From: a virus
Taxonomy: Duplodnaviria > Caudoviricetes
Strand: one strand, 5' to 3'
Length of the DNA: 43,116 bases
Virus record (IMG/VR): IMGVR_UViG_3300004241_000007
Location: 1 to 43,116 of that record
Part shown: piece after piece, positions 581 through 43,116 of the stretch
Position numbering within the stretch: the stretch's first letter is position 1
How the letters are laid out: each line of letters opens with the position of its first letter
Program-made: the position numbers and the translations under genes
Notes under the pieces: model-generated
Databases searched by the model: none
Told to the model about the DNA's origin: nothing
Seen by the model: the letters and a program-made list of their open reading frames with translations, nothing else

Positions 581-613
581 GTATATATAAGGAAAAACCT
601 TATGGAGGAAATT

Positions 614-1048
614 ATGTATAAATATCATGAATTGTTGGAAATTAATAAGGCATTAAGAATTTCAAAAGATAATTATAAGAAAATTTTGAATAGTTTTCCA
701 AATGATGAAGTGACATTAAATAAAATTGAAGTTATTGATGAATTATTAAATGGTGAGTTTAAAAGAAATTTATTTGATGAAGAAGAAGTTGATTATATTT
801 CTGAATTATTGGAAGTAAAATTTGATAAAGAAGTTGATAAAATTTGGTTAGATTTATTTCAAAATAAATTGAAAACCGGTCAACCATTTTCAGATTTTGA
901 AAAATTTATTTTATTAGATATAACAAAAGAAGAATTAAAAGAAATAAATCAGAATGAAAAAGATGGAAAATATAAAGTTGGTTATGGGAATTATATAAGT
1001 GATGTGTTTGTTATTTCAGAAATTATTGAAAAAATAAATCTAGGTTAA
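614..1048 (+). CDS. Acidic early protein, unknown function
   Basis: GGAGGAAATTATG places the start at 614; C-terminal half resembles the 1323-1610 product. Confidence 0.85.
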   Translation: MYKYHELLEINKALRISKDNYKKILNSFPNDEVTLNKIEVIDELLNGEFKRNLFDEEEVDYISELLEVKFDKEVDKIWLDLFQNKLKTGQPFSDFEKFILLDITKEELKEINQNEKDGKYKVGYGNYISDVFVISEIIEKINLG

Positions 1049-1288: not shown

Positions 1289-1322
1289 GTATATATAATC
1301 AAATATGATTATGGGAGAAATT

Positions 1323-1610
1323 ATGAAATTAAATTATGAAGAACTTGAGTATGTTGAGAATTTAATAGGTCTTGAGCAAAGCCCATTTTTACAACTTAAT
1401 ACAAATAAAGCTTATACAGATTTTCTTGAAAATATTTATGAAAAACTTGTCAAAAATGAAAAATTGACAATTGGTGAAAAAAATATTTTAATAAGTTTAA
1501 TAAAGGCCGATGACGAAAATATTTTAAATATGTTTAAAAATAATATAATTGATGACTTTGGTTTTGAAAGCAGTTTGGAATTTACCGAAAATTTAATAAA
1601 AAAATTTTAA
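1323..1610 (+). CDS. Acidic early protein, unknown function
   Basis: GGGAGAAATTATG start at 1323. Confidence 0.85.
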   Translation: MKLNYEELEYVENLIGLEQSPFLQLNTNKAYTDFLENIYEKLVKNEKLTIGEKNILISLIKADDENILNMFKNNIIDDFGFESSLEFTENLIKKF

Positions 1611-1647: not shown

Positions 1648-1681
1648 GTATATATAATCAAATATGGTTATGGAGGAAATT

Positions 1682-1978
1682 ATGAACAAAGTTGATGAAA
1701 TTATGAATATGCAAACTAGCAAACAAGATTTTGATTTAATTATTAAAATTGTTGCTCGTGCACAAGATTTGGGTTTAATTATTGAAACTCGAGAAGTTAT
1801 GCCGCTAATTATGGACTTGGACAATACTCACAAAATTTGCCCACTTGATTTATTTGCTTTATTAAATTATTTTAATAATTTCAGTTTCGCACATGATATT
1901 TATGGCATTCAACAAAACTTTAATAGAAAAACTTATGAAATTGATAATTGTTTCTTGCCAAGATGTGCAAAAAAATAA
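1682..1978 (+). CDS. Conserved phage protein (DUF6874-like)
   Basis: Motifs MDL..TH..CPLDL..LL, F.HDIYGI..N.NR.T, NCFLPR; GGAGG RBS. Confidence 0.75.
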   Translation: MNKVDEIMNMQTSKQDFDLIIKIVARAQDLGLIIETREVMPLIMDLDNTHKICPLDLFALLNYFNNFSFAHDIYGIQQNFNRKTYEIDNCFLPRCAKK

Positions 1979-11019: not shown

Positions 11020-11370
11020 ATGCTAAGAACAATTCAAGGTAGAGAATTTGATTTTAATTGTAAGTTGGGCGCAACAGTACGCATCAAATCTAAATTTAGA
11101 AAGACGTATAATCAAGTTGTCGAAGAATTAGACAAATTAGATACTGAAGGAATGATTGCATTACTATATTGCGGATTATCTCCTGAGCAAATCACTGAGT
11201 CTGAATTTACGGCACATATCTTTGAAACATGCGGGCTAGGAGATTTGACAGATGAACTTACATGGTTCGTAAAACAAATTCAATACCCAGGTTTAACTGA
11301 GGACGAAATCGAAAAAAAGTTGTCAGAGAAACGAGCACAAATTCAAAAGTACCAAACCCAGAACGATTAG
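11020..11370 (+). CDS. Tail assembly chaperone (gpG-like)
   Basis: Lies between the tube and tape-measure genes; carries a slippery site. Confidence 0.85.
   Translation: MLRTIQGREFDFNCKLGATVRIKSKFRKTYNQVVEELDKLDTEGMIALLYCGLSPEQITESEFTAHIFETCGLGDLTDELTWFVKQIQYPGLTEDEIEKKLSEKRAQIQKYQTQND
11313..11319 (+). other. -1 programmed ribosomal frameshift site A AAA AAG
   Basis: In-frame GAA AAA AAG; the -1 frame is open from here into 11412-11705. Confidence 0.85.
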
Positions 11371-11705
11371 ATTTTATAGAAATATTAATTCGAGAAGGTG
11401 CAGCGTATGACTTGAAACCAAGTGATATTATGGACATGCACCTTTGGGAATTTAATAACTATATAATTGGTTATCGAAAAAAAATAAGACGAGAACAAGA
11501 AAACATCGTCACTTTGGCGCACACAACTGCTAGTTTCGTAAACTCTTCGAAACGTTTAAAACCTTTACAAAAATACTTAGAAAAGATTGCTAAGAATTTT
11601 GAAAAGAAACCTACGAATAAAAATAAAGTTGACGTAGAAAAAGCCAACCAGATTGAAAGTATAATCGCTAGATTAAAAAAATTAAAGGAAGGTGAGCAAA
11701 AATGA
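11319..11705 (+). CDS. Tail assembly chaperone frameshift extension (gpT-like)
   Basis: Continuous -1 frame VVRETSTNSKVPNPERLDFIEILIREGAAYDLKPSDIMDMHLWEF...; the TTG at 11412 lacks a clear RBS. Confidence 0.8.
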   Translation, partial: VVRETSTNSKVPNPERLDFIEILIREGAAYDLKPSDIMDMHLWEFNNYIIGYRKKIRREQENIVTLAHTTASFVNSSKRLKPLQKYLEKIAKNFEKKPTNKNKVDVEKANQIESIIARLKKLKEGEQK

Positions 11706-22556: not shown

Positions 22557-22561
22557 CATTT

Positions 22562-22676
22562 AGGTTAATAAAGTTAATGAAGTTAAAGAATGATACCAAC
22601 GAAATATTAAAAATAAATTATGTATAACTTAATATTTTTTCATTAACTTCATTAACTTCATTAACTTCATTAACTT
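22562..22676. repeat. Inverted iteron element B (candidate origin)
   Basis: Three AAGTTAATG-like repeats, a 52-bp core, then four exact CATTAACTT. Confidence 0.8.
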
Positions 22677-28327: not shown

Positions 28328-28349
28328 ATATTTAACAGGAGGTAAAATT

Positions 28350-28358
28350 ATGCGCTGA
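28350..28358 (+). other. Two-codon minigene (Met-Arg-stop) with strong RBS
   Basis: AGGAGGT-AAAATT-ATG CGC TGA directly after P7. Confidence 0.55.
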
Positions 28359-28396
28359 ACAAATATGAATTGAATTAATTTATGAAAGGACAATTT

Positions 28397-29062: not shown

Positions 29063-29488
29063 ATGGCACGCGATTTAATGGATGAATTGAATGATGTATT
29101 TGAGGAAGTTAAAGACAAGGACTCGACATACGATAGACTAGAAGACGGTGAGTATTTGGGAATATTATCTGATATAATTGTTGGTGAAAGCAAAGCTGGA
29201 AAACCAATGTTAACGATGGTATTTGAAGTTACACACGGTCCTCGTGAAGGTCGTCAACACCGTAAATTCTTTATGTTAAGTGGAAACGATGAAAAACAAC
29301 TCAAGCAAAACCTACAACGTTATGCTACTGAAATCAGAAAAATCGGTATCGATACGTCTAAAGGTTTAAACTCTACGTTTGACCAATTAATGTTAAAAAT
29401 TGATGACGAATTTAAGTTCACAATCAAAACAACATTAAACAAAAATGGAACAGAATGGGTTAACACTTCGTTTGAAGCGGTAGAATAA
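29063..29488 (+). CDS. DUF669-like ssDNA-binding protein
   Basis: L.DGEY and ESKAGKPML...FEV..G...GR motifs. Confidence 0.82.
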   Translation: MARDLMDELNDVFEEVKDKDSTYDRLEDGEYLGILSDIIVGESKAGKPMLTMVFEVTHGPREGRQHRKFFMLSGNDEKQLKQNLQRYATEIRKIGIDTSKGLNSTFDQLMLKIDDEFKFTIKTTLNKNGTEWVNTSFEAVE

Positions 29489-31194
29489 TGTTTATATTTG
29501 ACTTTGAAGTATTTAAGTTTGACTGGTTGGTCGTGTTGAAAAACATGGCCACCGGTCGTTATATTACAATCATTAACGATAAGAATAAGTTGAAAGAGTT
29601 ATACGAAGAAAACAAAAACGACTTGTTCATTGGGTATAACAACATCGCATATGATAACATAATCTTTAAAGGAATACTATCAGACGTTGACCCAGCAGAA
29701 ATTACAAGATTAATCTTTGCATCAGAAAAAGGTACACGACATTTTGTATCTAAAGCGTTAGGCATTAAACAATTTCATTTGAATACAATTGATTTGATGC
29801 AAGATATATTAGGTATGAGTTTAAAAGAAGCAGAAGGTTTTATGAAAATGTCAATTGAAGAGTCAGACGTATCGTTCGATATTGATAGACCACTTACAGA
29901 AGACGAAATAAAACAGGTTGTTAAATACTGTACACATGACGTTGATGCAACAGAACAACTGCTACATATGCGATTACCATATGTAAAGTCAAAAATGAAT
30001 TTGATTAAAATGTTTAAATTGGGTTCGTCATATTTGGAAAAAACAAACGCAGCTTTATGTGCAGTAATTCTAAGTGCAAAAAGACGAAAACACACAGATG
30101 AATTTGAATACGATTTGCCACCTGAAGTTAACATCACTAAGTATACAAAAATCTTTGATTTATATATGAATAGAAAACTTGATTACGACGAAAAATTAAA
30201 AATAGACATTGCAGGTGTGCCACACATTCTCGCATATGGTGGAATACATGGGGCGTTAAATAATTTTATACACAAAGGTGAACTGTGGCAAATTGACGCA
30301 GCATCATACTATCCTACGTTAATGTTAGAGTATAACTATATCAGTAGAAATCTTAAAGACAACGCAAAGTATAAAGAAATTTATGACACAAGAATTAAAG
30401 CAAAACATGAGAAAAATAAAGCTGTTTCTGACTCATTAAAACTTGTTCTAAATACTGCATATGGCGCAATGAAAAGTCAGTACAATGAATTGAGTGACCC
30501 AAAAATGGCAAACCAGGTTTGTATCACAGGTCAATTATTATTGGTTGACTTAATCGAAAAGTTAGAACCGTATTGCAAATTGGTTCAATCTAACACAGAT
30601 GGAATTTTAGTTATTCCTTATAACAAAGAACGAATACAGGAAGTTATTAAAGAATGGGAAAAACGAACACGAATTGTTCTTGAGATAGACCCTTGTTCTG
30701 GTGTATGGCAAAAAGACGTTAATAACTATATTATGCTTTTCGAAGATGGTTCTGTTAAAACCAAAGGTGCATTTGTTTCACAGTATAACGAGTCATCGTT
30801 TAACATTAGAAACAACACACAAATTTTAGATATTGCTGTCGTTGATTATTTTACAAAAGGCATACATCCTATCGACACAATCATGAATTGCAATGACATA
30901 CACATGTTTCAAATCATCACAAACACAGGAAGTGTTTATGACAGAACAGTATGGTCAGTCAACAATGTTGATGTCGAAGTTAATAAAGTTAACCGAGTTT
31001 ACGCAACAACAGATACATCAAAAGGCAAATTGTACAAGATTAAAACAGAAAAAGGAAAACGCGATTCGATTGCAAACCTTCCTGACAATTGTCAATTAGC
31101 CAATGATAATAAGTTCGATATTAATTTATTGGACAAGAATTATTATATACAACGAGCATTGAGTAGAATTGCATACTTTGAAGGCACAGAATAG
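29488..31194 (+). CDS. DNA polymerase, family B-like, with 3'-5' exonuclease
   Basis: Exonuclease DFE, GYN...YD, Y...DV; polymerase DAASYYP, KLVLNTAYG, NTDG, VNNY, KG. Confidence 0.93.
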   Translation: MFIFDFEVFKFDWLVVLKNMATGRYITIINDKNKLKELYEENKNDLFIGYNNIAYDNIIFKGILSDVDPAEITRLIFASEKGTRHFVSKALGIKQFHLNTIDLMQDILGMSLKEAEGFMKMSIEESDVSFDIDRPLTEDEIKQVVKYCTHDVDATEQLLHMRLPYVKSKMNLIKMFKLGSSYLEKTNAALCAVILSAKRRKHTDEFEYDLPPEVNITKYTKIFDLYMNRKLDYDEKLKIDIAGVPHILAYGGIHGALNNFIHKGELWQIDAASYYPTLMLEYNYISRNLKDNAKYKEIYDTRIKAKHEKNKAVSDSLKLVLNTAYGAMKSQYNELSDPKMANQVCITGQLLLVDLIEKLEPYCKLVQSNTDGILVIPYNKERIQEVIKEWEKRTRIVLEIDPCSGVWQKDVNNYIMLFEDGSVKTKGAFVSQYNESSFNIRNNTQILDIAVVDYFTKGIHPIDTIMNCNDIHMFQIITNTGSVYDRTVWSVNNVDVEVNKVNRVYATTDTSKGKLYKIKTEKGKRDSIANLPDNCQLANDNKFDINLLDKNYYIQRALSRIAYFEGTE

Positions 31195-31211
31195 TGCATG
31201 AAAGGAATAAA

Positions 31212-31661
31212 ATGAAAGCATATATTGCAAGTCCATTCTTCAATCCTGAACAAGTTGAACGAGTGAAGTTTATCGAGACAACCCTTGGTAAAGTAGGAAT
31301 AGAAATGTTTAGTCCACGATTAGATACATATGTTAAACCGGACTCAAGTCATAGCGAAAGACGAATTGCATTTCACGAAAATCTAAAAGGGATTACTAAC
31401 GCAGACTTTATCGTGGTTGTCACAGACGGTAAAGACGTGGGTACAATCTTCGAAGCAGGTTATGCATGTGCAGCGAATATTCCAATATTATATTTCGCAG
31501 AAACATTAGGTGATAAACCGTTTAATCTAATGTTAGCACACAGCGCAACTCTTGGCACATGTAAAACAAGAACTGAGTTGTATCATGCGTTAACCGATGT
31601 TGCAACATTGGGTGTTGTGAATTGTATCAATCGACCTGAGTATAAAGGTTTAATCGAATAA
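31212..31661 (+). CDS. Nucleoside 2-deoxyribosyltransferase / nucleotide N-glycosidase family
   Basis: YIASPFF, AD.......DGKDVGTIFEAGYA and NLML motifs. Confidence 0.9.
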   Translation: MKAYIASPFFNPEQVERVKFIETTLGKVGIEMFSPRLDTYVKPDSSHSERRIAFHENLKGITNADFIVVVTDGKDVGTIFEAGYACAANIPILYFAETLGDKPFNLMLAHSATLGTCKTRTELYHALTDVATLGVVNCINRPEYKGLIE

Positions 31662-31662
31662 T

Positions 31663-32187
31663 ATGTTTTATAGATTAAGTGGATTAAAACGGTACAACAA
31701 TCAACCCAGAATAAAGTCTGAAAGTTTAGCTGAACACCAATATTATTGTGCATTAATCGTTATGTTCTTAAAACCACATATCGTCATTACTGAAACACAA
31801 TACGCATTATTATTAGAATACGCTTTGATACACGATGTTGGCGAGTTATATACTGGTGATATGCCACACAACATTAAAAAAGATTTTCCAATACTAAAAG
31901 AAACATTAGATATTGCCGAACAAAAGTTTTTAAGACAACATGGTTTTGACACAATCGAAAATGAAATTCAAAATACAATTAAATTAAAGACATTGTTCAA
32001 GTTAGCAGACACAATTCAAGTCATTCAGTATTGCAAAAACGAATTCATATTGGGTAACCACTCTAAAGAAATGGAACAAATCGATGACATTGCTCATGAT
32101 GAGTTTGAAAAATACTTTAGGTTATTAGTTACGCATGGCGTCATGAGTGATGATTTCGATTTAACTTCATTCATGTTAAAATTATGA
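31663..32187 (+). CDS. HD-domain deoxynucleotide phosphohydrolase (YfbR/DatZ-like)
   Basis: KRY, ESLAEH, ALIHD..E..TGD.P and KLAD motifs. Confidence 0.9.
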   Translation: MFYRLSGLKRYNNQPRIKSESLAEHQYYCALIVMFLKPHIVITETQYALLLEYALIHDVGELYTGDMPHNIKKDFPILKETLDIAEQKFLRQHGFDTIENEIQNTIKLKTLFKLADTIQVIQYCKNEFILGNHSKEMEQIDDIAHDEFEKYFRLLVTHGVMSDDFDLTSFMLKL

Positions 32188-32591
32188 TGATATTCGTTGA
32201 AGGCATTGACAAATCTGGCAAAGACACAATCGTTCGATATATTAATGAATATACAAATTTTGCTCATTACGTATCAGCAAGAGGTCCGATGAGTGTGTTA
32301 GCATACGGCCAGAAATTTGGAAGACTTGTTGACGGGTTTAGTTATTTAGAAAATATTAAAGATGAAGTTCTGTTTGTATATTTGGTTGTCGATGAAGACG
32401 ATTTTAATATTCGTTGTAAATTAACAAACGAACCATACACAAATTATGACGAGGACGTTAACGCATTTGATGATGCGCATACTTATATTACAAATCTAGG
32501 TATGCAAACTGTACGACTTAATACATCAAATATGACACCTCAAAGAATTGCAAACGTTATTGTACAATTAATACATGGGAGAAATACATGA
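32184..32591 (+). CDS. Compact dNMP (thymidylate-like) kinase
   Basis: VEGIDKSGKDT P-loop; R...S..AYG; lid R....E. Confidence 0.8.
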   Translation: MMIFVEGIDKSGKDTIVRYINEYTNFAHYVSARGPMSVLAYGQKFGRLVDGFSYLENIKDEVLFVYLVVDEDDFNIRCKLTNEPYTNYDEDVNAFDDAHTYITNLGMQTVRLNTSNMTPQRIANVIVQLIHGRNT

Positions 32592-33505
32592 AAAATACAA
32601 GCATACCTAAAATTAAACCGAAGATGGACATAAGCTTTGACATCAAACCAAAAACTAAATTTGTCAACAACCTTGATGCTATCGAAATTAAGTTATTAAA
32701 TTATACAAGAGTTGATGACCTAAACAACTTCGTTGCTGACTGGTCAAACGCAACATGGAACAAATACCCGTATGAGTCAACAGACAATGGTGATTACGAT
32801 GCTGCAAAGTATATCAACGGTTCAATTAATGGAATTGTGTTACCTACATTATTGGAAACGATTAACCTGACGTTCTTATTAAACGGAATTGACCTGACAA
32901 CTGTCACTCATATTCTACGATATAGAACTGCATCATTTTCAGCAGATTGTTCAGCAGATAAACTATGGCACGAAAGAACGTCATTAGTCCCATCGGCTGT
33001 TCAAAACTCCACTGAGATTTATCAAAAGTATATGAAGGCAACTGAATTATGTAAGGAAGTATATTGCGACATTATCAACTCAAAAGAAATTGGTATCATG
33101 GACGCAAGAAGTATCTTACCACGGAATTTAACAACATTCTATTATATGAATATCTCACTCAAAGACGTAATTCATTTTATTAGACAAAGAATTGATAAGC
33201 AAATTCAACCTGAAGTCGATAACATTATCGCATATAAAATGTATTTGGAAATACTAAGAGTATACCCTTTCCTAAAAGGTATGATTGATGTAAAAGCTCC
33301 AGCAATGCATTTTATTAAACAGGCAAATACAACTGGCTCAACAAATCTATACTGGCCAGACGAAGACTCTGACATATTCGATTGGAACCCTGAGTCATTC
33401 GTATATCAAAGAGAAAGAAAAACTTTGAATGGTACAAACGAAGGTGCAGAAAACCATTTTGAACAACTTAAGTTTGAACTATGGAAAGAGATTGAGAAAG
33501 TATAA
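32588..33505 (+). CDS. Divergent ThyX-fold flavoprotein
   Basis: PTLLE..N.TF, RYR.ASFS, DARSILP and FIRQR....QPE map onto ThyX motifs, but the catalytic signature is altered. Confidence 0.82.
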   Translation: MKNTSIPKIKPKMDISFDIKPKTKFVNNLDAIEIKLLNYTRVDDLNNFVADWSNATWNKYPYESTDNGDYDAAKYINGSINGIVLPTLLETINLTFLLNGIDLTTVTHILRYRTASFSADCSADKLWHERTSLVPSAVQNSTEIYQKYMKATELCKEVYCDIINSKEIGIMDARSILPRNLTTFYYMNISLKDVIHFIRQRIDKQIQPEVDNIIAYKMYLEILRVYPFLKGMIDVKAPAMHFIKQANTTGSTNLYWPDEDSDIFDWNPESFVYQRERKTLNGTNEGAENHFEQLKFELWKEIEKV

Positions 33506-33948: not shown

Positions 33949-35794
33949 TAAGTTTATCATTCTAAACAATGATAAAACTCCAAAACATTCCTTAGACGAA
34001 CACAAAACTTTTGACGAAGTTAAAAATTTAGACAGCTTAGCGATATTGGTTGATGAACCATATGTGATGATAGATATTGACGATGCATTCGAATATCTAA
34101 CACTCAAAAAAATCATTAAGGCAGAAAATATTAAGTGTAGAATAATGAAGACAACACGTGGTGGACATTTCTGGTTTAAGAGTATTGAACCAATGAAAAA
34201 CTTAGTTCATGCAAACACACCCATTACGCTAAACGTTGATGTTAGAAGTCACGGTAAAAAGAGTCTTGCAAAAGTAAAGCAAGACGGAGAATGGCGTGAA
34301 TGGGAAGTATGGGTTGATGAAGTAGACGACATTCCCTTTTGGTTAAGACCTGTGAGTCATAAATATCATTTCATGAACTCAAAAGAAGGTGATGGTAGAA
34401 ACTCTGATTTATTTAGTTATATCATCACGCTAACAAATGCAGGAATTACTAAGGAACAAACAAAACATGTCTATCAATTAATTAACACGCATTTGTTTGC
34501 CGATAAATTACCCAGTGAAGAGTTGAATACGATTTTAAGAGATGAAGCATTTGATAAAATAAAACCTGCATTCTTTGACAAACGTAGATTTATGCACGAT
34601 GTGTTCAGTAAATATTTCAGAAACGATAACAAAGTTTATGTTAAAAATGGTAGATTATTCATGTACGATGAAGGTTACTATTCAGACAATACAAAAGTTA
34701 TTGAAAAACGAATGATACAGTACATTCCTGAATTATCTAAAATGCAAAGACGAGAAGTTATGGATTATCTTAAGTTAATAGCAAACGACCCAATCAATAC
34801 AAGTATGTATCACGTTGTTTGTAAAAATGGATTAGTTGATATACGAGATTGCTCAGTCGGTAAATATACTTCAGAAATATTCTTAGCAAATAAAATCAAT
34901 GCAAGTTATATTCCAACAGCATATTCAGTTGATGTTGATAGAACATTAGACAAAATCTCTTGTAATGATAAAGAGTTAAGAATGTTAATCGAAGAAATGA
35001 TTGGCTATTGTTTAATCCAAACAGCTAAATTCCAAAAAGCGTTTATTTTATTTGGTGATGGTTCGAACGGTAAGAGTACTTTGTTAGACGTTGTGATTGC
35101 GTTATTAGGTGATAACAACGTGTCATCGTTAAGTTTAAAAGAGTTAAACCATAACTTTAAGTTAAGTGAAATTACTTCTAAAATGGCTAACATTGGTGAT
35201 GATATATCTGATGAATACTTGACAGACAGTTCTATCTTTAAGAAACTAGTTACTGGTGAAGAGATTACAGTTGATAAAAAGAATGAACAACCTTATAAAA
35301 TTAGAAATTATGCTAAGATGATATTCGCAGCAAATAACATGCCGAATACGATGGACAAATCAAACGGTATGATTAGACGGTTAAGTATCATTCCATTCAA
35401 TGCAGTATTTAGTAAAAATGACCCTGACTATGACCCGTTTATTATTGATAAACTAACAAGTGAAGAAGGTCTAAACTATTTATTAAAAATTGCAGTTGAT
35501 GGCATACGAAGAGTTTTCTCTAACAACAAGTTTACAGAACCAAAAGCAGTTGAGTCTATGGTGAGTGAATACGAAAAAGAAAACAACAATGTATTACAAT
35601 TTATCGATAAAGTCGAAATCGCCAATCGGGACGGTTCGTCTGTATATAATGACTATAAATTCTGGTGTGTTGAAAATGGAGTTATGAGTTATAAAATTAG
35701 AAAATTTAACAGTGAAATTAAAACGCATTTGCATTTAGAATTAGTAATTGAAAAATTCGAAGGAAGGACGGCACAAGTATGGCGCAAAAAATAA
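33923..35794 (+). CDS. Primase-helicase (Prim-Pol, PriCT, P4/D5-type SF3 helicase)
   Basis: DID, TTRGGHFWF, GDGRNS.LF, GDGSNGKST, FKKLVTGE, FAAN and RRL.IIPF motifs. Confidence 0.93.
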   Translation: MASAHLENNKFIILNNDKTPKHSLDEHKTFDEVKNLDSLAILVDEPYVMIDIDDAFEYLTLKKIIKAENIKCRIMKTTRGGHFWFKSIEPMKNLVHANTPITLNVDVRSHGKKSLAKVKQDGEWREWEVWVDEVDDIPFWLRPVSHKYHFMNSKEGDGRNSDLFSYIITLTNAGITKEQTKHVYQLINTHLFADKLPSEELNTILRDEAFDKIKPAFFDKRRFMHDVFSKYFRNDNKVYVKNGRLFMYDEGYYSDNTKVIEKRMIQYIPELSKMQRREVMDYLKLIANDPINTSMYHVVCKNGLVDIRDCSVGKYTSEIFLANKINASYIPTAYSVDVDRTLDKISCNDKELRMLIEEMIGYCLIQTAKFQKAFILFGDGSNGKSTLLDVVIALLGDNNVSSLSLKELNHNFKLSEITSKMANIGDDISDEYLTDSSIFKKLVTGEEITVDKKNEQPYKIRNYAKMIFAANNMPNTMDKSNGMIRRLSIIPFNAVFSKNDPDYDPFIIDKLTSEEGLNYLLKIAVDGIRRVFSNNKFTEPKAVESMVSEYEKENNNVLQFIDKVEIANRDGSSVYNDYKFWCVENGVMSYKIRKFNSEIKTHLHLELVIEKFEGRTAQVWRKK

Positions 35795-35982
35795 GTACAA
35801 GCAAATTATCAAATGAATTAAAAGTTAGAGGTATCACATTGGGTGTATTATCAGATAATACAGGCATTTCAAAACCTCATCTTTCAATGATGTTGAGCGG
35901 CAAACGTAACATGAGTATCAACAAACTTAATAGCATTTTAAGTTTTGTCGGTATCGATGTTAACGACATTATTGAAAAATAA
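35779..35982 (+). CDS. XRE/Cro-like HTH protein
   Basis: GITLGVLSDNTGISKPHLSMMLSGKR. Confidence 0.88.
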   Translation: MAQKISTSKLSNELKVRGITLGVLSDNTGISKPHLSMMLSGKRNMSINKLNSILSFVGIDVNDIIEK

Positions 35983-36002
35983 AAATTTTGTGAAAATAAA
36001 CG

Positions 36003-36031
36003 TTTACAAATAGTTAATTGTGTTGTATAAT
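36003..36031 (+). promoter_or_regulatory. Promoter P8
   Basis: TTTACA-AATAGTTAA...-TATAAT, 17-bp spacer. Confidence 0.85.
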
Positions 36032-36054
36032 GAATATATACAAAGGAGGAAGAT

Positions 36055-36438
36055 ATGGCTAAAATTATAGAAGTAAGACGAAAAATTGAAGAGATTAAAG
36101 CAGAGTATGTCGAAAAAATGAAGCCGCTAAAAGAGCAATTACAAACATTGCAAGAAGAGCAGGTCAAGGCATTACTTGATTTAGAAATTGATTACACAAA
36201 TGAGTGTAATGACATCATTGAAAATTTCATTGGTGGAACGATCGAAAAAATACCAAATGTATCAGTTAGGACGCTTAACGATTTTGAAGTTGTTGATAAA
36301 AATTTAGTACCATTAGAGTATTATGAGTGGCAACTAAGCACCAAGGCAATTAAAGAAAAATTGGTTGAAACAAATTACACTGAAGACATCCCAGGTATAA
36401 AGGCATTTAAGAAATATTCAGTCGCAGTAAAATTGTAA
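36055..36438 (+). CDS. Gp157/Gam-like coiled-coil phage protein
   Basis: FEVVD..LVP.EY......AIK......IPG pattern. Confidence 0.65.
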   Translation: MAKIIEVRRKIEEIKAEYVEKMKPLKEQLQTLQEEQVKALLDLEIDYTNECNDIIENFIGGTIEKIPNVSVRTLNDFEVVDKNLVPLEYYEWQLSTKAIKEKLVETNYTEDIPGIKAFKKYSVAVKL

Positions 36439-36446
36439 TAGTCATA

Positions 36447-36533
36447 ACAGGACTATTCAACGATGACTATCACTTCCCACCCATAATTTCCCCCAAATTA
36501 AAAATTGTGGTAGTCGTCCTTGAGTAGTTCTGT
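36447..36533 (+). ncRNA. Candidate structured RNA with C-rich loop
   Basis: 26-bp stem with four G-U pairs and one C-C mismatch; loop TTCCCACCCATAATTTCCCCCAAATTAAAAATT. Confidence 0.65.
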
Positions 36534-36560
36534 AAATAAAACCCTAAAAGGAGAAAACTT

Positions 36561-36905
36561 ATGAATTTTGAAAATGAAGATGAAACTCAAGTATTGGCCA
36601 GAATTATTATTGGACTAATGAATAGATTAAACGAAACACAGTTAGAATTGTCACAAGAAGAAGTTGTAATATCGTTTGATAAAGCAATCGCAATCGGGAT
36701 TAACAAAAAAACTGGTGCAACATTAGTAAAAGTGACAAACCATGAAGAAGCAAAAGAGATGAAGGCAAAGGCAAAATTAGAGGAAGTCACAGACGAATTC
36801 CTCGATGGCTTGCTAAGTAAACTAACATCGTTAAATGAATTATTAGAAAGAAAAACAAAAGAAAATGACACAGCAAGAACTACTGAGACAAATAAACTTA
36901 ATTAG
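36561..36905 (+). CDS. Hypothetical protein
   Basis: AAGGAG RBS. Confidence 0.8.
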   Translation: MNFENEDETQVLARIIIGLMNRLNETQLELSQEEVVISFDKAIAIGINKKTGATLVKVTNHEEAKEMKAKAKLEEVTDEFLDGLLSKLTSLNELLERKTKENDTARTTETNKLN

Positions 36906-37422
36906 AATTGGTAGTAAATGGTGTATCAAAAAGAAAAAAGATGCATCGTACTATGTTAACATTGGGACAATGACTTTGCCACCACATGAACACATCAGTG
37001 TAGAGATGGTTTCATTAACTGTTGACAATCTTATGATACACATTTATCATCGTTCTGGTTACACAGGCATGTATAATGTAAGTAGATTTATTGACTTATT
37101 TGAAGAAATCGTATACCCTGACGCAAAATTAAAAGACTTTGTGAATATGCAGGAGCTGTTTAGAGACATCAAAAAAGATTACGGTATAAATCTTAATAGT
37201 TATCGCGACGTTAATTCTAGAACCCTCCAAATTAACCCTGCAACGTTTGAACCTATTATCAATTATATGGAGAAAAACAATCTGGTCGAACCGATTATTT
37301 CTAAAAAAGAAGCTGACTATATTAAACATGGCAAAGGAGCTGAGAGTAAATCATATGGACTACAGAAAAACAATAAAATACCTCATGGACCGAAGGGCAA
37401 GGCTGATTGTTCTATCGGCTAA
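36865..37422 (+). CDS. Hypothetical protein
   Basis: 185-aa ORF in operon context. Confidence 0.7.
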   Translation: MTQQELLRQINLIRIGSKWCIKKKKDASYYVNIGTMTLPPHEHISVEMVSLTVDNLMIHIYHRSGYTGMYNVSRFIDLFEEIVYPDAKLKDFVNMQELFRDIKKDYGINLNSYRDVNSRTLQINPATFEPIINYMEKNNLVEPIISKKEADYIKHGKGAESKSYGLQKNNKIPHGPKGKADCSIG

Positions 37423-37573
37423 AATAGCAAACAACAAAGATTATTTGACAGAATACATCGACTTTCAAGAAGAAATTAGAATATTGGACGCTTTGATTTA
37501 TGAATTAGCTGATGCAGAAAATGCAGAAAAATACAAATCTAAAGTTCATGGCGACCAACTCGGATTGTTATGA
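37355..37573 (+). CDS. Hypothetical protein (start uncertain, 37328 or 37355)
   Basis: Open frame coupled to the next gene by ATGA. Confidence 0.6.
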   Translation: MDYRKTIKYLMDRRARLIVLSAKIANNKDYLTEYIDFQEEIRILDALIYELADAENAEKYKSKVHGDQLGLL

Positions 37574-38085
37574 AAAAATACATATATCTTACGTTTTTAT
37601 TGTTAGCAATGTTATTTCTAGGAGTGATATTAGGAAAAGCACTTGTTGTACAAGAAACAAAAACTGAAATAGTCTATATTGATGCACCAGAAATTGAGTT
37701 TATAGAACATCCGATTTGTTCAGTTAACACATTCAAAAGTTGGATGGATTATAGAAAAATTACTGCACCAAGTTCTGACCAATACAAACTTCAATCTAAA
37801 TCAACTACAAATCAAGTTACTGGAATTAGAGAATACAAAGGTTACTTAATGGTTGCAATGGCATCGATATACGGACCTGTAGGAAGAACATACGAAATAA
37901 CGTTTGAGTCAAACCAAACGATTAATGTAATTATTGGTGATATTAAAGCTGACACAGATTGTGAACATAGTGATGGTTCAATGATTGAGTTTATAGTTGA
38001 TGAGAATATGATTAGAAAAAATGTTATAAATACTGGGAATTTTAATGAAATGTTTGTTGGACAAATTGTGAAAATAAAGGAGTAA
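37570..38085 (+). CDS. Membrane-anchored / secreted phage protein
   Basis: N-terminal TM or signal; FKSWMDY..IT, VAM.S.YG and IIGDIKAD blocks. Confidence 0.8.
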   Translation: MKKYIYLTFLLLAMLFLGVILGKALVVQETKTEIVYIDAPEIEFIEHPICSVNTFKSWMDYRKITAPSSDQYKLQSKSTTNQVTGIREYKGYLMVAMASIYGPVGRTYEITFESNQTINVIIGDIKADTDCEHSDGSMIEFIVDENMIRKNVINTGNFNEMFVGQIVKIKE

Positions 38086-38089
38086 ACTT

Positions 38090-38407
38090 ATGCCAAAAGA
38101 ATTAGAAATTATAAAACTACGCGATTTATTAATAAAACATAATATCGCGCACGAGTATGAAGATGAGATGACAAACAAGGGAGATTTTATGTTCGGTCTT
38201 GGTGCAAGAAAACATATCGAAATTTACGAAGGTGAAACTAGAGTAATAAGTGTAATTTATGGTGAAGGCACGTACGGTTATCGAAATGGTTTATTAGAAA
38301 TCATGGGCTTATTAACACCTGACGAAGAAGAAAATGACTCTGTTGTGGGTTATCTAACAGCTGCTAACGTGTTTAACAGAATTAGAAAGTACTACACGTT
38401 GATATAA
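38090..38407 (+). CDS. Conserved hypothetical phage protein
   Basis: SVI...GTYG...GLLEIMGL...DSV.GYLTA; AAGGAG RBS. Confidence 0.82.
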   Translation: MPKELEIIKLRDLLIKHNIAHEYEDEMTNKGDFMFGLGARKHIEIYEGETRVISVIYGEGTYGYRNGLLEIMGLLTPDEEENDSVVGYLTAANVFNRIRKYYTLI

Positions 38408-38410
38408 TTT

Positions 38411-38641
38411 ATGAAAGAATTTAAACTTAACGACCATGTATTAATCACACTTTACGACGGTGGTGAGTTTCACTTCCATAAAGGAAAAGTTGCAGGGTAT
38501 AGTCAAGCACTAGACCTCTATCATGTTGATTGTGTTAAAGTTGAAATCATGAGTGATATGACAGAGTCGAAGATTGAAAAATATAGACTTAATGTCAAAC
38601 CGAATAATATGAAGTTAGAAAGAGGTAAACGTAGATTATGA
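38411..38641 (+). CDS. Hypothetical protein (possibly SH3-like)
   Basis: FKLNDHV....GKV pattern. Confidence 0.7.
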   Translation: MKEFKLNDHVLITLYDGGEFHFHKGKVAGYSQALDLYHVDCVKVEIMSDMTESKIEKYRLNVKPNNMKLERGKRRL

Positions 38642-38847
38642 TAATTAAAATATTAAGGGCATTACAAAACAAAGAAGACATTGAACTCAAAAACATTAAC
38701 GGGCAATATGTATTGGTGACAAAAACAGAAAAAATAATTTCCGGCAAAAAGGACATTTACCTGTTCAATAAGGCATTACATGTTGTAATTAATGCACTAC
38801 AATTCGATGTGGAGGACGAGCTATCAAATGGACCACACTATGACTGA
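38638..38847 (+). CDS. Hypothetical protein
   Basis: GAGGT RBS, ATGA overlap. Confidence 0.7.
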   Translation: MIIKILRALQNKEDIELKNINGQYVLVTKTEKIISGKKDIYLFNKALHVVINALQFDVEDELSNGPHYD

Positions 38848-39016
38848 ATACGAAATTTCTGCTTTGTATAAAATCTATCATGACGAAGAATACTACAACA
38901 TATGTGAGTTTGGTAAATTCGTAGAATGGTACACTGCAAAAGAAGGCAGAAAATTACAAAACGAAAGATTAAACGCTGAGAATAAAAAACAAAAATTCTT
39001 TGGTGACCCAGAATAA
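38828..39016 (+). CDS. Hypothetical protein (start 38828 or 38840)
   Basis: Last ORF before a terminator. Confidence 0.6.
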   Translation: MDHTMTEYEISALYKIYHDEEYYNICEFGKFVEWYTAKEGRKLQNERLNAENKKQKFFGDPE

Positions 39017-39041
39017 AACCTCGATAATGTCGGGGTTTTTT
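39015..39041 (+). terminator. Intrinsic terminator
   Basis: AAAACCTCGA / TCGGGGTTTT stem plus T-tract. Confidence 0.85.
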
Positions 39042-39061
39042 CTAGAAATAATTGAAAACTT

Positions 39062-39074
39062 CTCGAGTAATGCA
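39062..39074 (+). repeat. Third CTCGAGTAATGCA element (right arm degenerate)
   Basis: Exact 13-mer match to 306-318 and 42935-42947. Confidence 0.8.
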
Positions 39075-39351
39075 ACTTTTTCTTCGAAAAATCTTGCCAG
39101 AAAATGAAAAACTAGGAAAAATAATGAGTCAAATGTAACAAAATGTAAGATTTTGAGTCAAATGTAACTTATTACATGACAAGTGTACACATTTTTGTAC
39201 AGTTTTGTCAGAGTCAGTTTAAACGCGATAGCTTAATTTTACAAATAGTTAATATTTTACTATTAGCTTATAGCAGAATGTTCAACCTGACACATCTGGT
39301 GAACTCAATTTTTTTGGGCAAAAAATAAAAAAATTATTTTTAACAAAAGCG

Positions 39352-39380
39352 TTTACAAATAGTTAATTATAATATATAAT
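39352..39380 (+). promoter_or_regulatory. Early promoter P9
   Basis: TTTACA-AATAGTTAATTATAATA-TATAAT, same core as P3. Confidence 0.88.
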
Positions 39381-39414
39381 GTATATATAACCTAAACAGG
39401 TTGTGGAGGAAATT

Positions 39415-39957
39415 ATGGAAAAAGCATTTATAGCATTTGAAAAAGTTCGTCAATCAGGTGTAACCAATATGTATGACAGGACGTATGTTTGCTCATTGGC
39501 AGGTATTACAGTTGAGGAATATCATTATATTTTAGAAAATTACACGGAATTATTAAACCAATTTAATGAACAGTTAAAATCAGAAGAAACTAAATTTGAA
39601 TTAAGTGATAAAGAAAAATTTATGTCGGCATATGATGATGTAAAAGAATTAGAAGTTCGATATGGTTTGGATTATGATATTGTTGAAAATGGTGTATCAA
39701 TGAAACGATATTATGATGACTCTGACAAATTGATTTTATCAAAAGGTGTAAATCACATGGACAAATTTTTAGAGTTCTGTGATGATAATGAAATTAAAGA
39801 ATTTTATATCACAAATAAAATGATGGACGAAGAGGCCACAAATATTCTTAGTTGTGTTGCGCTTAATGATCAGTATAATTTTAGTGGTACAGAATTCGAA
39901 AGATTAGGACAACTTACAGAATTATTGTTCAAATTTAGTATCAAGGAGGTGGCATAA
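39415..39957 (+). CDS. Acidic early protein with N-terminal DUF5049-like domain
   Basis: VRQSGVTNMYD...V and I.ENY..L motifs; GGAGGAAATTATG start. Confidence 0.8.
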   Translation: MEKAFIAFEKVRQSGVTNMYDRTYVCSLAGITVEEYHYILENYTELLNQFNEQLKSEETKFELSDKEKFMSAYDDVKELEVRYGLDYDIVENGVSMKRYYDDSDKLILSKGVNHMDKFLEFCDDNEIKEFYITNKMMDEEATNILSCVALNDQYNFSGTEFERLGQLTELLFKFSIKEVA

Positions 39958-40262
39958 TGGCTAAGTGGAATTATGTCGAAGAAGAAGGTAAAACATTAAG
40001 AAAATTAATTGACGGCAATAATCATGTTGAAATATTAAAACTCATTCATAAAATTGCAGAAAAATATTCAAAAATCACATTTGATGAAGAAGAATTTTGC
40101 AACGGTTTTGGAGAATTGGCAATGTTGATTGATGGTGAATGGTTGTATAAAGATGAAGAATTGGCTGATTATAATTGGGCAAGTTGGGATGAACTAATTG
40201 ATAGTAGGTTATATGACCTATATAATGCATGTGACAGTTACAGGGTGTTTTTATCACTATGA
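39957..40262 (+). CDS. Acidic hypothetical protein
   Basis: AAGGAGG RBS; D/E-rich. Confidence 0.82.
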   Translation: MAKWNYVEEEGKTLRKLIDGNNHVEILKLIHKIAEKYSKITFDEEEFCNGFGELAMLIDGEWLYKDEELADYNWASWDELIDSRLYDLYNACDSYRVFLSL

Positions 40263-40486
40263 CACCATTTCAATTCTTCGTAATTGTATTTTGTCTCACA
40301 TTGATATTTCTTACATTCAAAAAATATGGCGTCAAAGAAACAATGTTTGCCGAACAAATTGGTCATTGCCCAAAATGTAAAGTTGAACTAACCTCAGTTG
40401 ACCTGAAGTTACATTCTTGTCCAAGGTGTAATGGTCCTATATATAAACAAAATATCTTGTGGATAGAACGTCGAGAAAGAAGTTGA
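40259..40486 (+). CDS. Small membrane-anchored zinc-ribbon protein
   Basis: N-terminal TM; CPKC...CPRC. Confidence 0.72.
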   Translation: MTPFQFFVIVFCLTLIFLTFKKYGVKETMFAEQIGHCPKCKVELTSVDLKLHSCPRCNGPIYKQNILWIERRERS

Positions 40487-40505
40487 AAAAACTTCTTTTT
40501 CTTTT
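40476..40505 (+). terminator. Probable terminator
   Basis: AAAGAAGTT / AACTTCTTT stem followed by a T-rich tract. Confidence 0.6.
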
Positions 40506-40515
40506 AACAAAAGCG

Positions 40516-40544
40516 TTTACAAATAGTTAATTATATGTTATACT
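40516..40544 (+). promoter_or_regulatory. Early promoter P10
   Basis: TTTACA-AATAGTTAA...TG-n-TATACT, 17-bp spacer. Confidence 0.88.
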
Positions 40545-40580
40545 ATATATATAAGGAAGATGACTTCCTCGGAGGAAATT

Positions 40581-41882
40581 ATGGAAGAAAAAACAATTTG
40601 CTATTTACATTCTCATGGATTGAAGTTAGTTAAAAACGAAAAAACTTATATGTTGATAAATAGCAACGATTATGTACGAACTTTCGATTTATCAAAAAAA
40701 TCTTGGAAGTCAGACGGAGAAGCTAAGTATCTAAAAGAAACTACTAAAATCAAAATTATCGATGAGCTTCGTGCTTGGGCAAGAAACAGAACTGAAGTTG
40801 CTGAGTTTATAACTTGGTATGATGGAAGAACTTTCGAAGAAGAAGGCGAAGAAAAACCTAGTCCAAAAGCTGAAGCTAAAACTGAAGTTGTAGTTCTTGA
40901 TAATTCAGAAGTTGTTAACCAACTTAAGGAATTAACTTCAATGTTAAAAGCTCAATCTCAACGCAATCCATTTGAACAGGCAATGTTGGAAGGAATTATT
41001 GAAAAAGGGAAAGAATTGGCAACTGAAGAATTACGAGTTGAACTTACTTCTCATTTAAAATCATTCGTAGAAAAATCTTACGGTGTACTTCCAAAAGTTA
41101 TTGAAATAAAACAAGGTGACTCACGCAAAGAAATGCAAGGAAACTTCCATAATTTGTTTGATAAAATCATTAAAGTTGTTTCTGCAAAAATTCCACTAAT
41201 GTTGGTCGGTCCTGCTGGTTCAGGAAAAAATCATACTTTGGAACAAGTAGCTGAAGCTCTAAGTTTGGACTTTTATTTCTCAAATGCCATCACTCAAGAA
41301 TACAAATTAACTGGCTTCATTGATGCACATGGAAAATTTCAAGAAACTGAGTTCTTCAAAGCTTTCTCAAAAGGTGGTTTATTCTTCTTTGATGAAATTG
41401 ATGCATCATCACCTGAGTCACTTATAGTTGTTAATGCCGCTTTGGCAAATGGTTACTTTGATTTTCCAAATGGTAGAATTAATGCACATGAAAATTTCAG
41501 AGTTGTGGCTGCTGCAAACACATTCGGTCATGGTGCCGATATGATATACATTGGTCGTAACCAACTTGATGCGGCGACACTTGACAGATTTGCAGTTATG
41601 ACATTTGAATATGATGCTGAAATTGAAAAAGCACTTGCATTTGATACTGATTTATATGACTTCATATTTGACCTAAGACGTGCAATTAATAGAAGAGGCC
41701 TAAGATATGTAATTTCTATGAGAGCAACTATCAATGCCACAAAAATGTTGAATGCCGATATGGACAAATTAACAATTGTCAAATCAGTTATTACAAAAGC
41801 TATGTCAAAAGATGATGTAAATTCCATCATAAATGAATTAAAAATTGACAATGAATGGACTAAACTACTTCGTAAAGTATAA
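40581..41882 (+). CDS. MoxR/CobS-like AAA+ ATPase
   Basis: GPAGSGKN, FFFDEID, F...AANT.G.G and RNQLDAATLDRF motifs. Confidence 0.9.
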   Translation: MEEKTICYLHSHGLKLVKNEKTYMLINSNDYVRTFDLSKKSWKSDGEAKYLKETTKIKIIDELRAWARNRTEVAEFITWYDGRTFEEEGEEKPSPKAEAKTEVVVLDNSEVVNQLKELTSMLKAQSQRNPFEQAMLEGIIEKGKELATEELRVELTSHLKSFVEKSYGVLPKVIEIKQGDSRKEMQGNFHNLFDKIIKVVSAKIPLMLVGPAGSGKNHTLEQVAEALSLDFYFSNAITQEYKLTGFIDAHGKFQETEFFKAFSKGGLFFFDEIDASSPESLIVVNAALANGYFDFPNGRINAHENFRVVAAANTFGHGADMIYIGRNQLDAATLDRFAVMTFEYDAEIEKALAFDTDLYDFIFDLRRAINRRGLRYVISMRATINATKMLNADMDKLTIVKSVITKAMSKDDVNSIINELKIDNEWTKLLRKV

Positions 41883-41888
41883 AAACTG

Positions 41889-41917
41889 AATACACCGTCT
41901 AAAAAGCGGTGTATTTT
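41889..41917 (+). terminator. Probable terminator
   Basis: AATACACCG / CGGTGTATT stem. Confidence 0.7.
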
Positions 41918-42059
41918 CCTAGATGAGTGTGATAGAACGCGATAGTTAAACGAAAAATTAGGCATGTATTTTCCTATTAACTATTTGTAAACAATCAACA
42001 TGACTCATCTATGACAAAAAAATTTTTCAAAACTTATTAAAAAATAGTTAAAATAAACG

Positions 42060-42088
42060 TTTACAAGTAGTTAACACTATGATATAAT
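42060..42088 (+). promoter_or_regulatory. Early promoter P11
   Basis: TTTACA-AGTAGTTAA...TG-n-TATAAT; leader GAATATATACAAAGGAGGAAGATATG identical to P8. Confidence 0.88.
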
Positions 42089-42111
42089 GAATATATACAA
42101 AGGAGGAAGAT

Positions 42112-42927
42112 ATGTTAACAAACAACACGGCAAAATTTAACTTCACTTATTTCGGTTCTGTCAACGAGATGATGGGTTATATGACAACCGAAAAAGATTA
42201 TGACTCTGGCCGAGGTACCTCATCTCATAAGTCCGGCGACGAAGATTATTATGGTGATAATGGTTGGGATGATGCTGTTGAAAAAATCACTTACGGTGAT
42301 GAAAAACTAAGAAAATTCATTGACTCAAAAATGATTTCGATTAGTGAAATTAACACATTGGCAAATAAAATCAAAACCACATATTCACTTGATGTTGTTG
42401 GTGCTGTACCTCATGTCCCAAATGCAATATTGAATATTCCACAAAACATGATTAAAGTAACCAGACGTCAGGTCAAAAACAAAATTCTAAATATCTTCAT
42501 TTCTATCTCAGCCCATTGTGGAATTTCACAAACTGAGATTAAAGAAAATGCCGCAAAATGTGCAGCTGCCGTAAATCTTTTGGAACAGGAAGGTTACCGG
42601 TGTAATGTACTTTCTGGGTCATTCGCCGAACTGGACGGAAAAACCGTGGGTTATGTCACAAAAATCAAAAGTGACAAGGAACCGTTAAACTTGGCAATGA
42701 TGGCATATCCAATGGCAAGTCCTGGGATGTTGAGAAGATTTGGCCTTAGGTTCTTTGAAACTACACCAATTGATTTCACCCATTCTGGTTATGGAACACC
42801 TATGGACAATCATGACGCAATCAAGAAAATTCTTAAGGAAAATTTGAACATTGACAATCCATTTGTTTTCTCAGTTTCCAAGAATAGTGGCAAAGTGGAG
42901 GACATAGCAAATACATTTAAATTCTGA
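42112..42927 (+). CDS. vWA-like partner of the AAA+ ATPase
   Basis: DVVG..P.VP..I..IP.NM; beta strand NIFISIS..; LEQEGY; P.MLRR.G; GYG.P; follows a MoxR-type ATPase. Confidence 0.65.
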   Translation: MLTNNTAKFNFTYFGSVNEMMGYMTTEKDYDSGRGTSSHKSGDEDYYGDNGWDDAVEKITYGDEKLRKFIDSKMISISEINTLANKIKTTYSLDVVGAVPHVPNAILNIPQNMIKVTRRQVKNKILNIFISISAHCGISQTEIKENAAKCAAAVNLLEQEGYRCNVLSGSFAELDGKTVGYVTKIKSDKEPLNLAMMAYPMASPGMLRRFGLRFFETTPIDFTHSGYGTPMDNHDAIKKILKENLNIDNPFVFSVSKNSGKVEDIANTFKF

Positions 42928-42934
42928 AAAATGT

Positions 42935-42961
42935 CTCGAGTAATGCATCTTGTTACTCGAG
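42935..42961 (+). terminator. Fourth conserved post-gene hairpin
   Basis: CTCGAGTAA-TGCATCTTG-TTACTCGAG perfect 9-bp stem. Confidence 0.65.
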
Positions 42962-43056
42962 TATTTCCCCTAGAAAATGAAAAAGCCCTAAATGTAAAAT
43001 CTTACATTTGAATGTAAAATCTTACAACAATGTAACAAATCTAACTCAAATTTTCA

Positions 43057-43116
43057 TAAAAAACTTTAGTCAAAAGCGTTTACATATAGTTACTATTATG
43101 GTATACTATATATATA
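43057..43116. repeat. 60-bp direct terminal repeat, right copy
   Basis: Identical to 1-60. Confidence 0.95.

Follow-up and report, generated by a model that had tools for sequence, protein, structure and literature searches.

A conserved hairpin in a probably lytic phage carries a loop antisense to a start tag shared by six genes

Introduction

What does a very stable hairpin do in a tailed phage when its loop is antisense to the translation starts of six genes of the same genome? The question is raised by IMGVR_UViG_3300004241_000007, a complete phage record of 43,116 bases with direct terminal repeats and 33% G+C; the window analysed here is this whole stretch. The genome contains the structural genes of a tailed phage, a replication block and a set of small genes; the promoters of these small genes are near-identical, of the form TTTACA-17-TATAAT/TATACT. 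The phage is probably lytic, because a scan of 53 of its about 70 proteins turned up no integrase, and the strong GGAGG sites together with the low G+C suggest a Gram-positive-type host. The sole sequencing run that contains the genome is a freshwater metagenome (DNA), possibly the source sample, and the contigs of that single run show no variant in the hairpin. Three genomes are informative for the locus: this phage and two relatives, L001 and G006.

Results

Fold of the hairpin

The element is a single long hairpin on the + strand:

36447..36533, + strand: long RNA hairpin with a 14-bp outer helix, a C/C mismatch, a 12-bp inner helix and a 33-nt loop (36474-36506)

The outer helix pairs 36447-36460 with 36520-36533 and the inner helix pairs 36462-36473 with 36507-36518, with the mismatch C36461/C36519 between them. 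The first-pass annotation, made from the sequence alone, had described a 26-bp stem around this mismatch with four non-Watson-Crick pairs, all of them G-U on the + strand. Our recount gives the same 26 pairs and the same four G-U pairs. The + strand folds at -36.2 kcal/mol (z -9.6), a value equalled by none of 200 shuffles, and the - strand at -25.4 kcal/mol (z -2.75), equalled by 1 of 200. When both strands are scanned in 100-nt windows at a step of 10, the hairpin is the most stable window genome-wide, and the runner-up reaches -33.3. The asymmetry of the fold and the placement of the G-U pairs favour an RNA made from the + strand. The hairpin is a real, conserved element, and it is close to certain that it folds as an RNA structure.

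An intrinsic terminator is ruled out by the absence of a U-tract after the stem, where AAATAAAA comes next, and by the terminator scan, in which the site is unlisted; this consensus scan lists no + strand terminator-like site at all for 35700-43116. Rfam gives nothing at the hairpin; its three matches at E<=5 in the whole genome all lie elsewhere, and none is to C4. A blastn search of the hairpin against cultured phages returned 12 records, none covering more than about 21% of it. An RNase III site needs about two helical turns of double-stranded RNA. Stems of this length are present here (26 bp) and in L001 (31 bp), while G006 has just 10 bp.

The loop core pairs with a tag at the starts of six genes

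The loop carries a core that is antisense to a tag comprising the Shine-Dalgarno (SD) sequence, the spacer and the AUG of six genes. The core and the six target leaders are as follows:

36481..36496, + strand: loop core CCATAATTTCCCCCAA, antisense to the SD-spacer-AUG tag; 16/16 identical in L001
61..93, + strand: target leader 1; 5' hairpin 61-80, tag 81-93, gene 91-285, promoter 23
587..616, + strand: target leader 2; hairpin 587-603, tag 604-616, gene from 614, promoter 552
1295..1325, + strand: target leader 3; hairpin 1295-1312, GGGAG-variant tag 1313-1325, gene from 1323, promoter 1260
1654..1684, + strand: target leader 4; hairpin 1654-1671, tag 1672-1684, DUF6874 gene from 1682, promoter 1619
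39387..39417, + strand: target leader 5; hairpin 39387-39404, tag 39405-39417, gene from 39415, promoter 39352
40554..40583, + strand: target leader 6; hairpin 40554-40569, tag 40571-40583, MoxR/CobS-like AAA ATPase from 40581, promoter 40516

The antisense match had been claimed for the loop 13-mer CATAATTTCCCCC (36482-36494), and it holds: the reverse complement agrees at 12 of 13 positions with 81, 604, 1672, 39405 and 40571 (all beginning GGAGG) and with 1313 (beginning GGGAG). With up to two mismatches allowed the count rises to 8, made up of the six tags, the loop's own sequence and a site at 25525 with two mismatches; 0.75 matches are expected by chance, and 0/100 shuffles give 8. The six targets are one motif and not six independent tests, so a fairer measure is the probability that the 33-nt loop contains a match with no more than one mismatch, about 7e-6 (from base composition, and post hoc).

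The first-pass annotation had also called for a genome-wide ranking of the predicted interactions. This was run with RNAduplex plus an opening-energy heuristic, not IntaRNA, on 67 start regions, 5 of which have coordinates a few bases off the start codon. The six tagged starts take ranks 1 to 6, at -16.9 to -11.9 kcal/mol. The start of the Gp157-like gene at 36055 ranks seventh at -11.9, tying the weakest target, and the next start reaches -8.9. The observed mean duplex energy of -17.6 was attained by none of 1000 shuffled loops and by none of 1000 shuffles with the run of five C (C5) held fixed; the loop match is therefore more than a C-run against SD sites. GGAGG is present in 20 of the 67 start regions, and each loop-tag duplex has an A-C mismatch or a bulge at the SD. 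A perfect anti-SD CCUCC would bind all 20 of these starts, so it is plausible that the mismatched C5 ties binding to the spacer and AUG and spares the other GGAGG genes.

An inner TAATTT/AAATTA stem had been expected to expose CCCCC as a seed. The stem is real and C5 is fully open, but the stem is marginal and the minimum-energy fold leaves the loop open. The pairing probability of this weak stem (36484-36489/36495-36500) is about 0.4 here and about 0.65-0.8 in L001; the opening energy of the C5 run is about 0, and the run is fully open in both genomes.

A blind screen for non-coding antisense matches returned the hairpin site as the sole such match in this genome and as the sole multi-gene match among 15 sequences; single chance 11-nt matches occurred twice in 12 other sequences (about 323 kb). 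The screen recovered the elements of all three genomes, and in G006 the antisense site was the only non-coding match. These results are from a rerun at a 45-aa cut-off; a 55-aa cut-off had missed G006, where the target is 52 aa. We consider it very probable that the loop-tag pairing is functional.

Tagged and untagged leaders

The tag is one half of a two-part leader. A 5' hairpin touching the ribosome site is present in 10/10 tagged leaders (6/6 here, 3/3 in L001 and 1/1 in G006) and in 0/7 untagged ones. These leader hairpins are 6-7 bp long (about 10 bp in G006), start a few bases past the -10 box and end no more than 2 bases from the SD. Their stems mostly differ in sequence while the tag is kept. 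The untagged leaders behind the same promoter type are 3-7 nt long, and their promoters include those of nuclease, recombination and replication operons (22690, 24266, 28299). That the tagged genes are early is likely, from the promoter consensus only. A 5'-terminal stem-loop can stabilise an mRNA, and stable hairpin-led messages would need an active off switch.

The promoter cassettes are near-duplicates and there are signs that leaders have been copied between them, so shared strings can arise by copying. This bears on one argument of the first-pass annotation, which had offered the sRNA as the explanation of the identical ribosome-binding strings. The strings are shared, but by themselves they need no such RNA, as the untagged leaders of 36055 and 42112 are also identical. 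The DUF7192 gene has an untagged leader here (42060-42114, near-identical to that of 36055) and a tagged one in L001 (15410-15474); judged by sequence, this is a swap of leaders between cassettes.

A separate motif, (A/G)TAGTTA(A/C), lies in the spacer of the promoters at 23, 552, 1260, 1619, 36003, 39352, 40516 and 42060. It also occurs outside promoters at 39245, 41942 and 41977, and in L001 and G006. It is possibly an operator for a Cro-like HTH protein (35779, 25247, 26316).

The Gp157-like gene and its operon

The hairpin lies directly behind a small gene and inside its operon, for which the following features were identified:

36003..36031, + strand: sigma-70/A-type promoter-like site TTTACA-17-TATAAT; a consensus match only, and the likely source of the transcript
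36055..36438, + strand: Gp157-like gene, 127 aa; its 3' flank is the element in all three genomes
36437..36457, + strand: alternative short hairpin from prefix folding, pairing 36437-36443 with 36451-36457 and overlapping the upstream stop codon
39016..39043, + strand: likely operon terminator hairpin about 2.5 kb downstream; fold -14.8 kcal/mol, unlisted by the consensus scan

The nearest + strand promoter-like site to the hairpin is the one at 36003, upstream of gene 36055, and we took the label P8 of the first-pass annotation to mean this site (36003-36031). The predicted structure of the gene product matches Sipho_Gp157 with a TM score of 0.64; a Pfam sequence scan gave no Gp157 match. Four further proteins of the family exist, and an HMM of the gene matched 3 of 23 sequences. 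Homologs of the Gp157-like gene include P0003 (87%), P0004 (65%) and P0005 (69%), along with P0007 and P0008. Protein scans found none with the single sequence, just L001 with the alignment, the phage's own genome only in metagenomes and none in genome contigs. The sequences compared make "3' flank of the Gp157-like gene" the better description of the element, which moves between genomes with that gene.

The sequence at the stop codon can also pair with the 5' arm of the long stem, over 7-12 bp here and 15 bp in L001 (11148-11181). We speculate from the folding models that this stop-codon hairpin could compete with the outer helix during transcription and act as a translation-coupled or kinetic switch.

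The element in the relative L001

L001 has a primase 88% identical to that of this phage and carries the hairpin behind the same Gp157-like gene. Across the 26 stem pairs compared between the two genomes, 17 are the same, 3 have one-sided and 6 two-sided changes, and none is broken. The four-fold sites of four flanking genes are just 40-50% identical, and the 16-nt loop core is unchanged. The three tagged genes of L001 take ranks 1-3 of 24, the third scoring -6.7 by the heuristic and -10.5 for the core alone. The leader of its own Gp157-like gene shows no pairing (-0.3 core total).

A pattern scan of viral contigs with the loop 16-mer gave 31 stretches, of which one, on the L001 contig, has an enclosing long stem; the stem is absent from the other 30. 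An early-cassette pattern scan gave 3 stretches, all on the L001 contig, and a scan with the ATPase alignment found L001 only.

Elsewhere, L001 holds at 2995-8288 extra nucleotide-modification-like genes (oxidoreductase-, HAD- and glycosyltransferase-like, by eye). The corresponding region here, 29488-33505, has a nucleoside deoxyribosyltransferase, an HD protein and a ThyX-like gene. Both gene sets are possible base-modification pathways.

Loop and tag are both changed in the relative G006

G006 is more distant (primase 74%; record 56% complete) and has a Gp157-like homolog at the end of its operon. The segment ATATTCAATCC starts at the first base after the stop codon of the homolog. It is an exact 11-nt antisense of GGATTGAATAT, which lies at the ribosome-binding site and start of that operon's first gene; this gene is hairpin-led and has a promoter of the same type. 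No 11-nt match to that leader occurs in any of the 1134 other windows of 100 nt, and the leader, the single known target, ranks first of 30. Cross-pairing fails both ways: each genome's own pairs reach -14.5 to -20.3 and swapped pairs -4.7 to -7.5. The architecture also differs, as the antisense segment lies in a weak hairpin of its own, 5' of the 10-bp stem; that stem shares ACTATTC with the stem of this phage. Co-variation of loop and tag in related phages, put forward earlier as a check, was followed in these two informative relatives: the two are identical in L001 and both changed in G006, a co-change that rests on one event.

The G006 element was first spotted by eye, and the long-hairpin screen missed it. 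Chance leader duplexes of -14 to -17.7 (with no accessibility term) are found in G007 and L066. Given these and the chance 11-mers noted above, the support from G006 rests on position and target class, not on energy. Past the antisense segment, at 11173-11181 (reverse-complement coordinates), comes another anti-SD run, AAACCTCCT, this one perfect; no clear target was found for it.

Scans with the primase alignment found L001, G006, three relatives at about 40% and one short Clostridiales MAG fragment. A long-hairpin screen of G001-G005, PV173148, L006 and L008 found no analogue; an AT-rich loop with 4 matches in G005 was judged to be chance. Screens of G007 and L066 likewise gave no analogue of the element, and the more distant relatives show neither the Gp157-like gene nor an analogue.

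Other repeats and short open reading frames

Several further features were seen in the window. At 28334-28360 (about 1835-1865 in L001), behind the promoter that precedes a Sak4-like gene, an ORF of two codons comes after a strong SD; it reads Met-Arg-stop here and Met-Thr-stop in L001, and its position is conserved. A four-copy repeat with CTC(G/A)AGTAATGCA stands after early genes at 290-355, 1043-1108, 39046-39111 and 42919-42984. Three copies fold as hairpins with compensating arms and the 39046 copy does not; the repeat is a candidate terminator or processing site. Dense ATGTAA/TTACAT repeats occupy 360-530, 1100-1240, 2150-2850, 39130-39190 and 42990-43030, between early cassettes and before the terminase small subunit, and this region is possibly an origin, packaging or protein-binding site. 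Long inverted repeats of a TTAATGAAG/CTTCATTAA unit lie at 2055-2168 and 22560-22669, both ends of the structural block, and a similar element precedes the G006 terminase at about 11280-11440 (reverse-complement coordinates).

Discussion

Comparison with known systems

RsaE/RoxS and RNAIII are discrete transcripts with their own promoter and terminator, and the element has neither. What it shares with these Firmicutes RNAs is an accessible, conserved C-rich seed complementary to SD-like sites. In those RNAs (PMC6158497), a single-stranded C-rich seed pairs with SD-like sites on several mRNAs, and specificity comes from bases beyond the SD as well as from a departure from the canonical anti-SD, which is also seen here. 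They are host chromosomal sRNAs, whereas the element is phage-encoded, lies within an operon and is aimed at a private tag of its own genome, and it has no sequence or Rfam similarity to them.

The C4 antisense RNA of phages P1 and P7 is processed from a longer transcript, and its loops base-pair in trans with phage mRNA, where they cover part of the ribosome-binding site (PMC5320573). The likeness lies in an exposed loop directed at phage ribosome-binding sites and in a specificity that a few changed bases switch between phages. C4 differs in having three stem-loops and two loops, in maturation by RNase P and in its role in lysogenic immunity (PMC5320573). The element is one long hairpin with one loop, six separate target transcripts and no Rfam match. 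The complementarity and ranking that occlusion of the C4 type calls for are found in silico, as predicted pairing only. The element would work like RsaE/RoxS and P1 C4 and is a member of neither.

OppZ and CarZ of Vibrio cholerae are autoregulatory, 3' UTR-derived sRNAs, RNase E products that act on their own operon (PMC7398697). The element is alike as an RNA from a 3' flank that would feed back on translation initiation, and the G006 arrangement fits this topology; it differs in that its main predicted targets are other transcripts. Pairing with the own operon is predicted in G006 (1 of 30), weakly here (7 of 67) and not in L001.

A close parallel to the tag is the SAS/ESAS sequence of Cluster K mycobacteriophages, described as a 13-nt asymmetric tag at the ribosome-binding sites of non-structural genes, often preceded by an inverted repeat (PMC3203893). 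Its reader was left open in 2011 as 'either RNA or protein' (PMC3203893). Here too an asymmetric repeat of about 13 nt lies at the ribosome-binding sites of non-structural genes with an inverted repeat upstream. The tag differs from the Cluster K consensus and the 17-bp conserved inverted repeats of SAS contrast with variable hairpins of 6-7 bp (about 10 in G006); the sequence and the host group are other, and here a candidate RNA reader in the genome co-varies with the tag.

T4 RegB is a protein endoribonuclease with ribosomal protein S1 as cofactor (PMC3014915). The proposed purpose is alike, a post-transcriptional shut-off of early mRNA through an extended SD motif, but the reader is a protein there and a proposed RNA here, and the motif is another. 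RNase III sites in phage early mRNAs are known, such as the SP82 early sites (PMC4838370). We found no description in the open-access literature of a phage RNA silencing a tagged early regulon, and such a circuit is absent from the sections consulted of the 2025 phage sRNA review (PMC12197685). That review has a table with 38 uncharacterised phage sRNAs, which could bear on novelty.

Proposed mechanism

We propose that a trans-acting hairpin RNA blocks translation of the tagged early mRNAs as a delayed feedback, which comparison of the sequences makes probable, and the sRNA interpretation of the first-pass annotation is supported to that extent. At infection, host RNA polymerase would fire all 11 promoters of the TTTACA-17-TATAAT type. 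Leaders that are tagged and capped by the 5' hairpin would give stable, highly translated mRNAs. The hairpin RNA, from the promoter at 36003, would accumulate more slowly, within the operon mRNA or as a 57-87-nt piece. Because the promoter of the RNA is of the same class as those of its targets, the circuit would be a delayed negative feedback. Release may be by RNase III cutting the 26-31-bp stem; naming RNase III specifically is tentative, a little short of an even chance, and the short stem of G006 suggests that release is not essential.

The open C5 would dock on GGAGG, and AUAAUUU would then extend the pairing over the spacer and AUG at the expense of the weak inner stem. The resulting duplex of 13-15 bp would lie flush with the 5' hairpin and could stack on it. 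With the SD, spacer and AUG of six separate transcripts covered, ribosome loading would be blocked and the likely early genes turned off together, while the untagged nuclease, recombination and replication operons would still be translated, giving an early-to-replication switch. That the tagged genes are repressed in trans we hold to be a good deal likelier than its opposite. A wider, joint reading has about an even chance as a whole: that the early-to-replication switch of a lytic phage is an RNA-guided regulon, in which genes are enrolled by a two-part leader module (the 5' hairpin and the private SD-AUG tag), the reader of the tag is a single long-stem RNA acting through toehold and displacement, maturation of the RNA may be timed by the competing hairpin over the upstream stop codon, and the system arose from 3' UTR feedback confined to a single operon, an arrangement that G006 retains.

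Alternative explanations

The pairing might have been selected in the reverse direction, with the tagged leaders binding the loop and altering the processing or stability of the Gp157-like operon mRNA, so that the hairpin senses early transcription. An element embedded in an operon and lacking its own promoter or terminator fits such a sensor, as does the competing hairpin over the stop codon, which suggests a switchable outer helix. We consider it unlikely all the same: the pairing covers the SD and AUG of six mRNAs, and translation would be blocked under selection in either direction; about 15-19 nt separate the end of the stem from the next SD downstream, which is not hidden; and G006 has no operon gene after the element. 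A second possibility is autoregulation only, either OppZ/CarZ-like or by 5'-3' UTR pairing, of the first gene of the own operon, with the other matches as by-products of copied cassettes. In G006 the element closes an operon whose first gene is indeed its sole known target, and here gene 36055 ranks 7 of 67 at -11.9. In L001, however, the leader of the Gp157-like gene stays unpaired while three other genes pair, and the leaders share the tag but not the sequence of their 5' hairpins, which leaves this account quite unlikely.

Trans repression by the hairpin RNA has also to be weighed against a protein reader. The stem could be an RNase III processing or stabilising signal, as in SP82, and the tag could be read by a RegB/RegA-like protein, the complementarity being incidental. 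The long stem, with conserved helix sequence around a central pyrimidine mismatch, would suit this, and in T4 an extended SD motif is the route by which RegB shuts early mRNAs off (PMC3014915). Such an account would leave the conserved loop core, the improbable match within the loop and the matched change in G006 unexplained; the tag departs from the GGAGRAYARAA of RegB at 3 of 7 positions after GGAG (by eye), and no RegB or RegA family member was found among the 53 proteins scanned. We rate it very unlikely. Highly improbable, finally, is a generic anti-SD RNA against host mRNAs, a stabiliser or activator of the tagged mRNAs, or a minus-strand product, either a decoy or a mini-ORF, with the tag in sense. 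Binding to many SD-like sites is a property of C-rich loops (PMC6158497), and the minus strand does read as SD-AUG here and in L001, but the match extends through the phage-specific spacer and AUG and the G-U asymmetry favours the + strand. The minus-strand mini-ORF was rejected: it has 4 codons here, 10 in L001 and no AUG in G006.

Significance

The way in which lytic phages silence their early genes is known in few instances. The locus offers a concrete candidate RNA reader, a co-varying tag and a two-part leader rule (10/10 against 0/7), and simple reporter assays in a laboratory Gram-positive bacterium could check the idea with no need to grow the phage itself. If true, trans repression by the hairpin RNA would be a compact off switch in which one RNA acts on many genes, useful for phage biology and for synthetic biology. 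If the joint reading of an RNA-guided regulon is true, the element would be a natural reader for SAS-type tags and one case of a widespread, so far unpublished class of phage switch.
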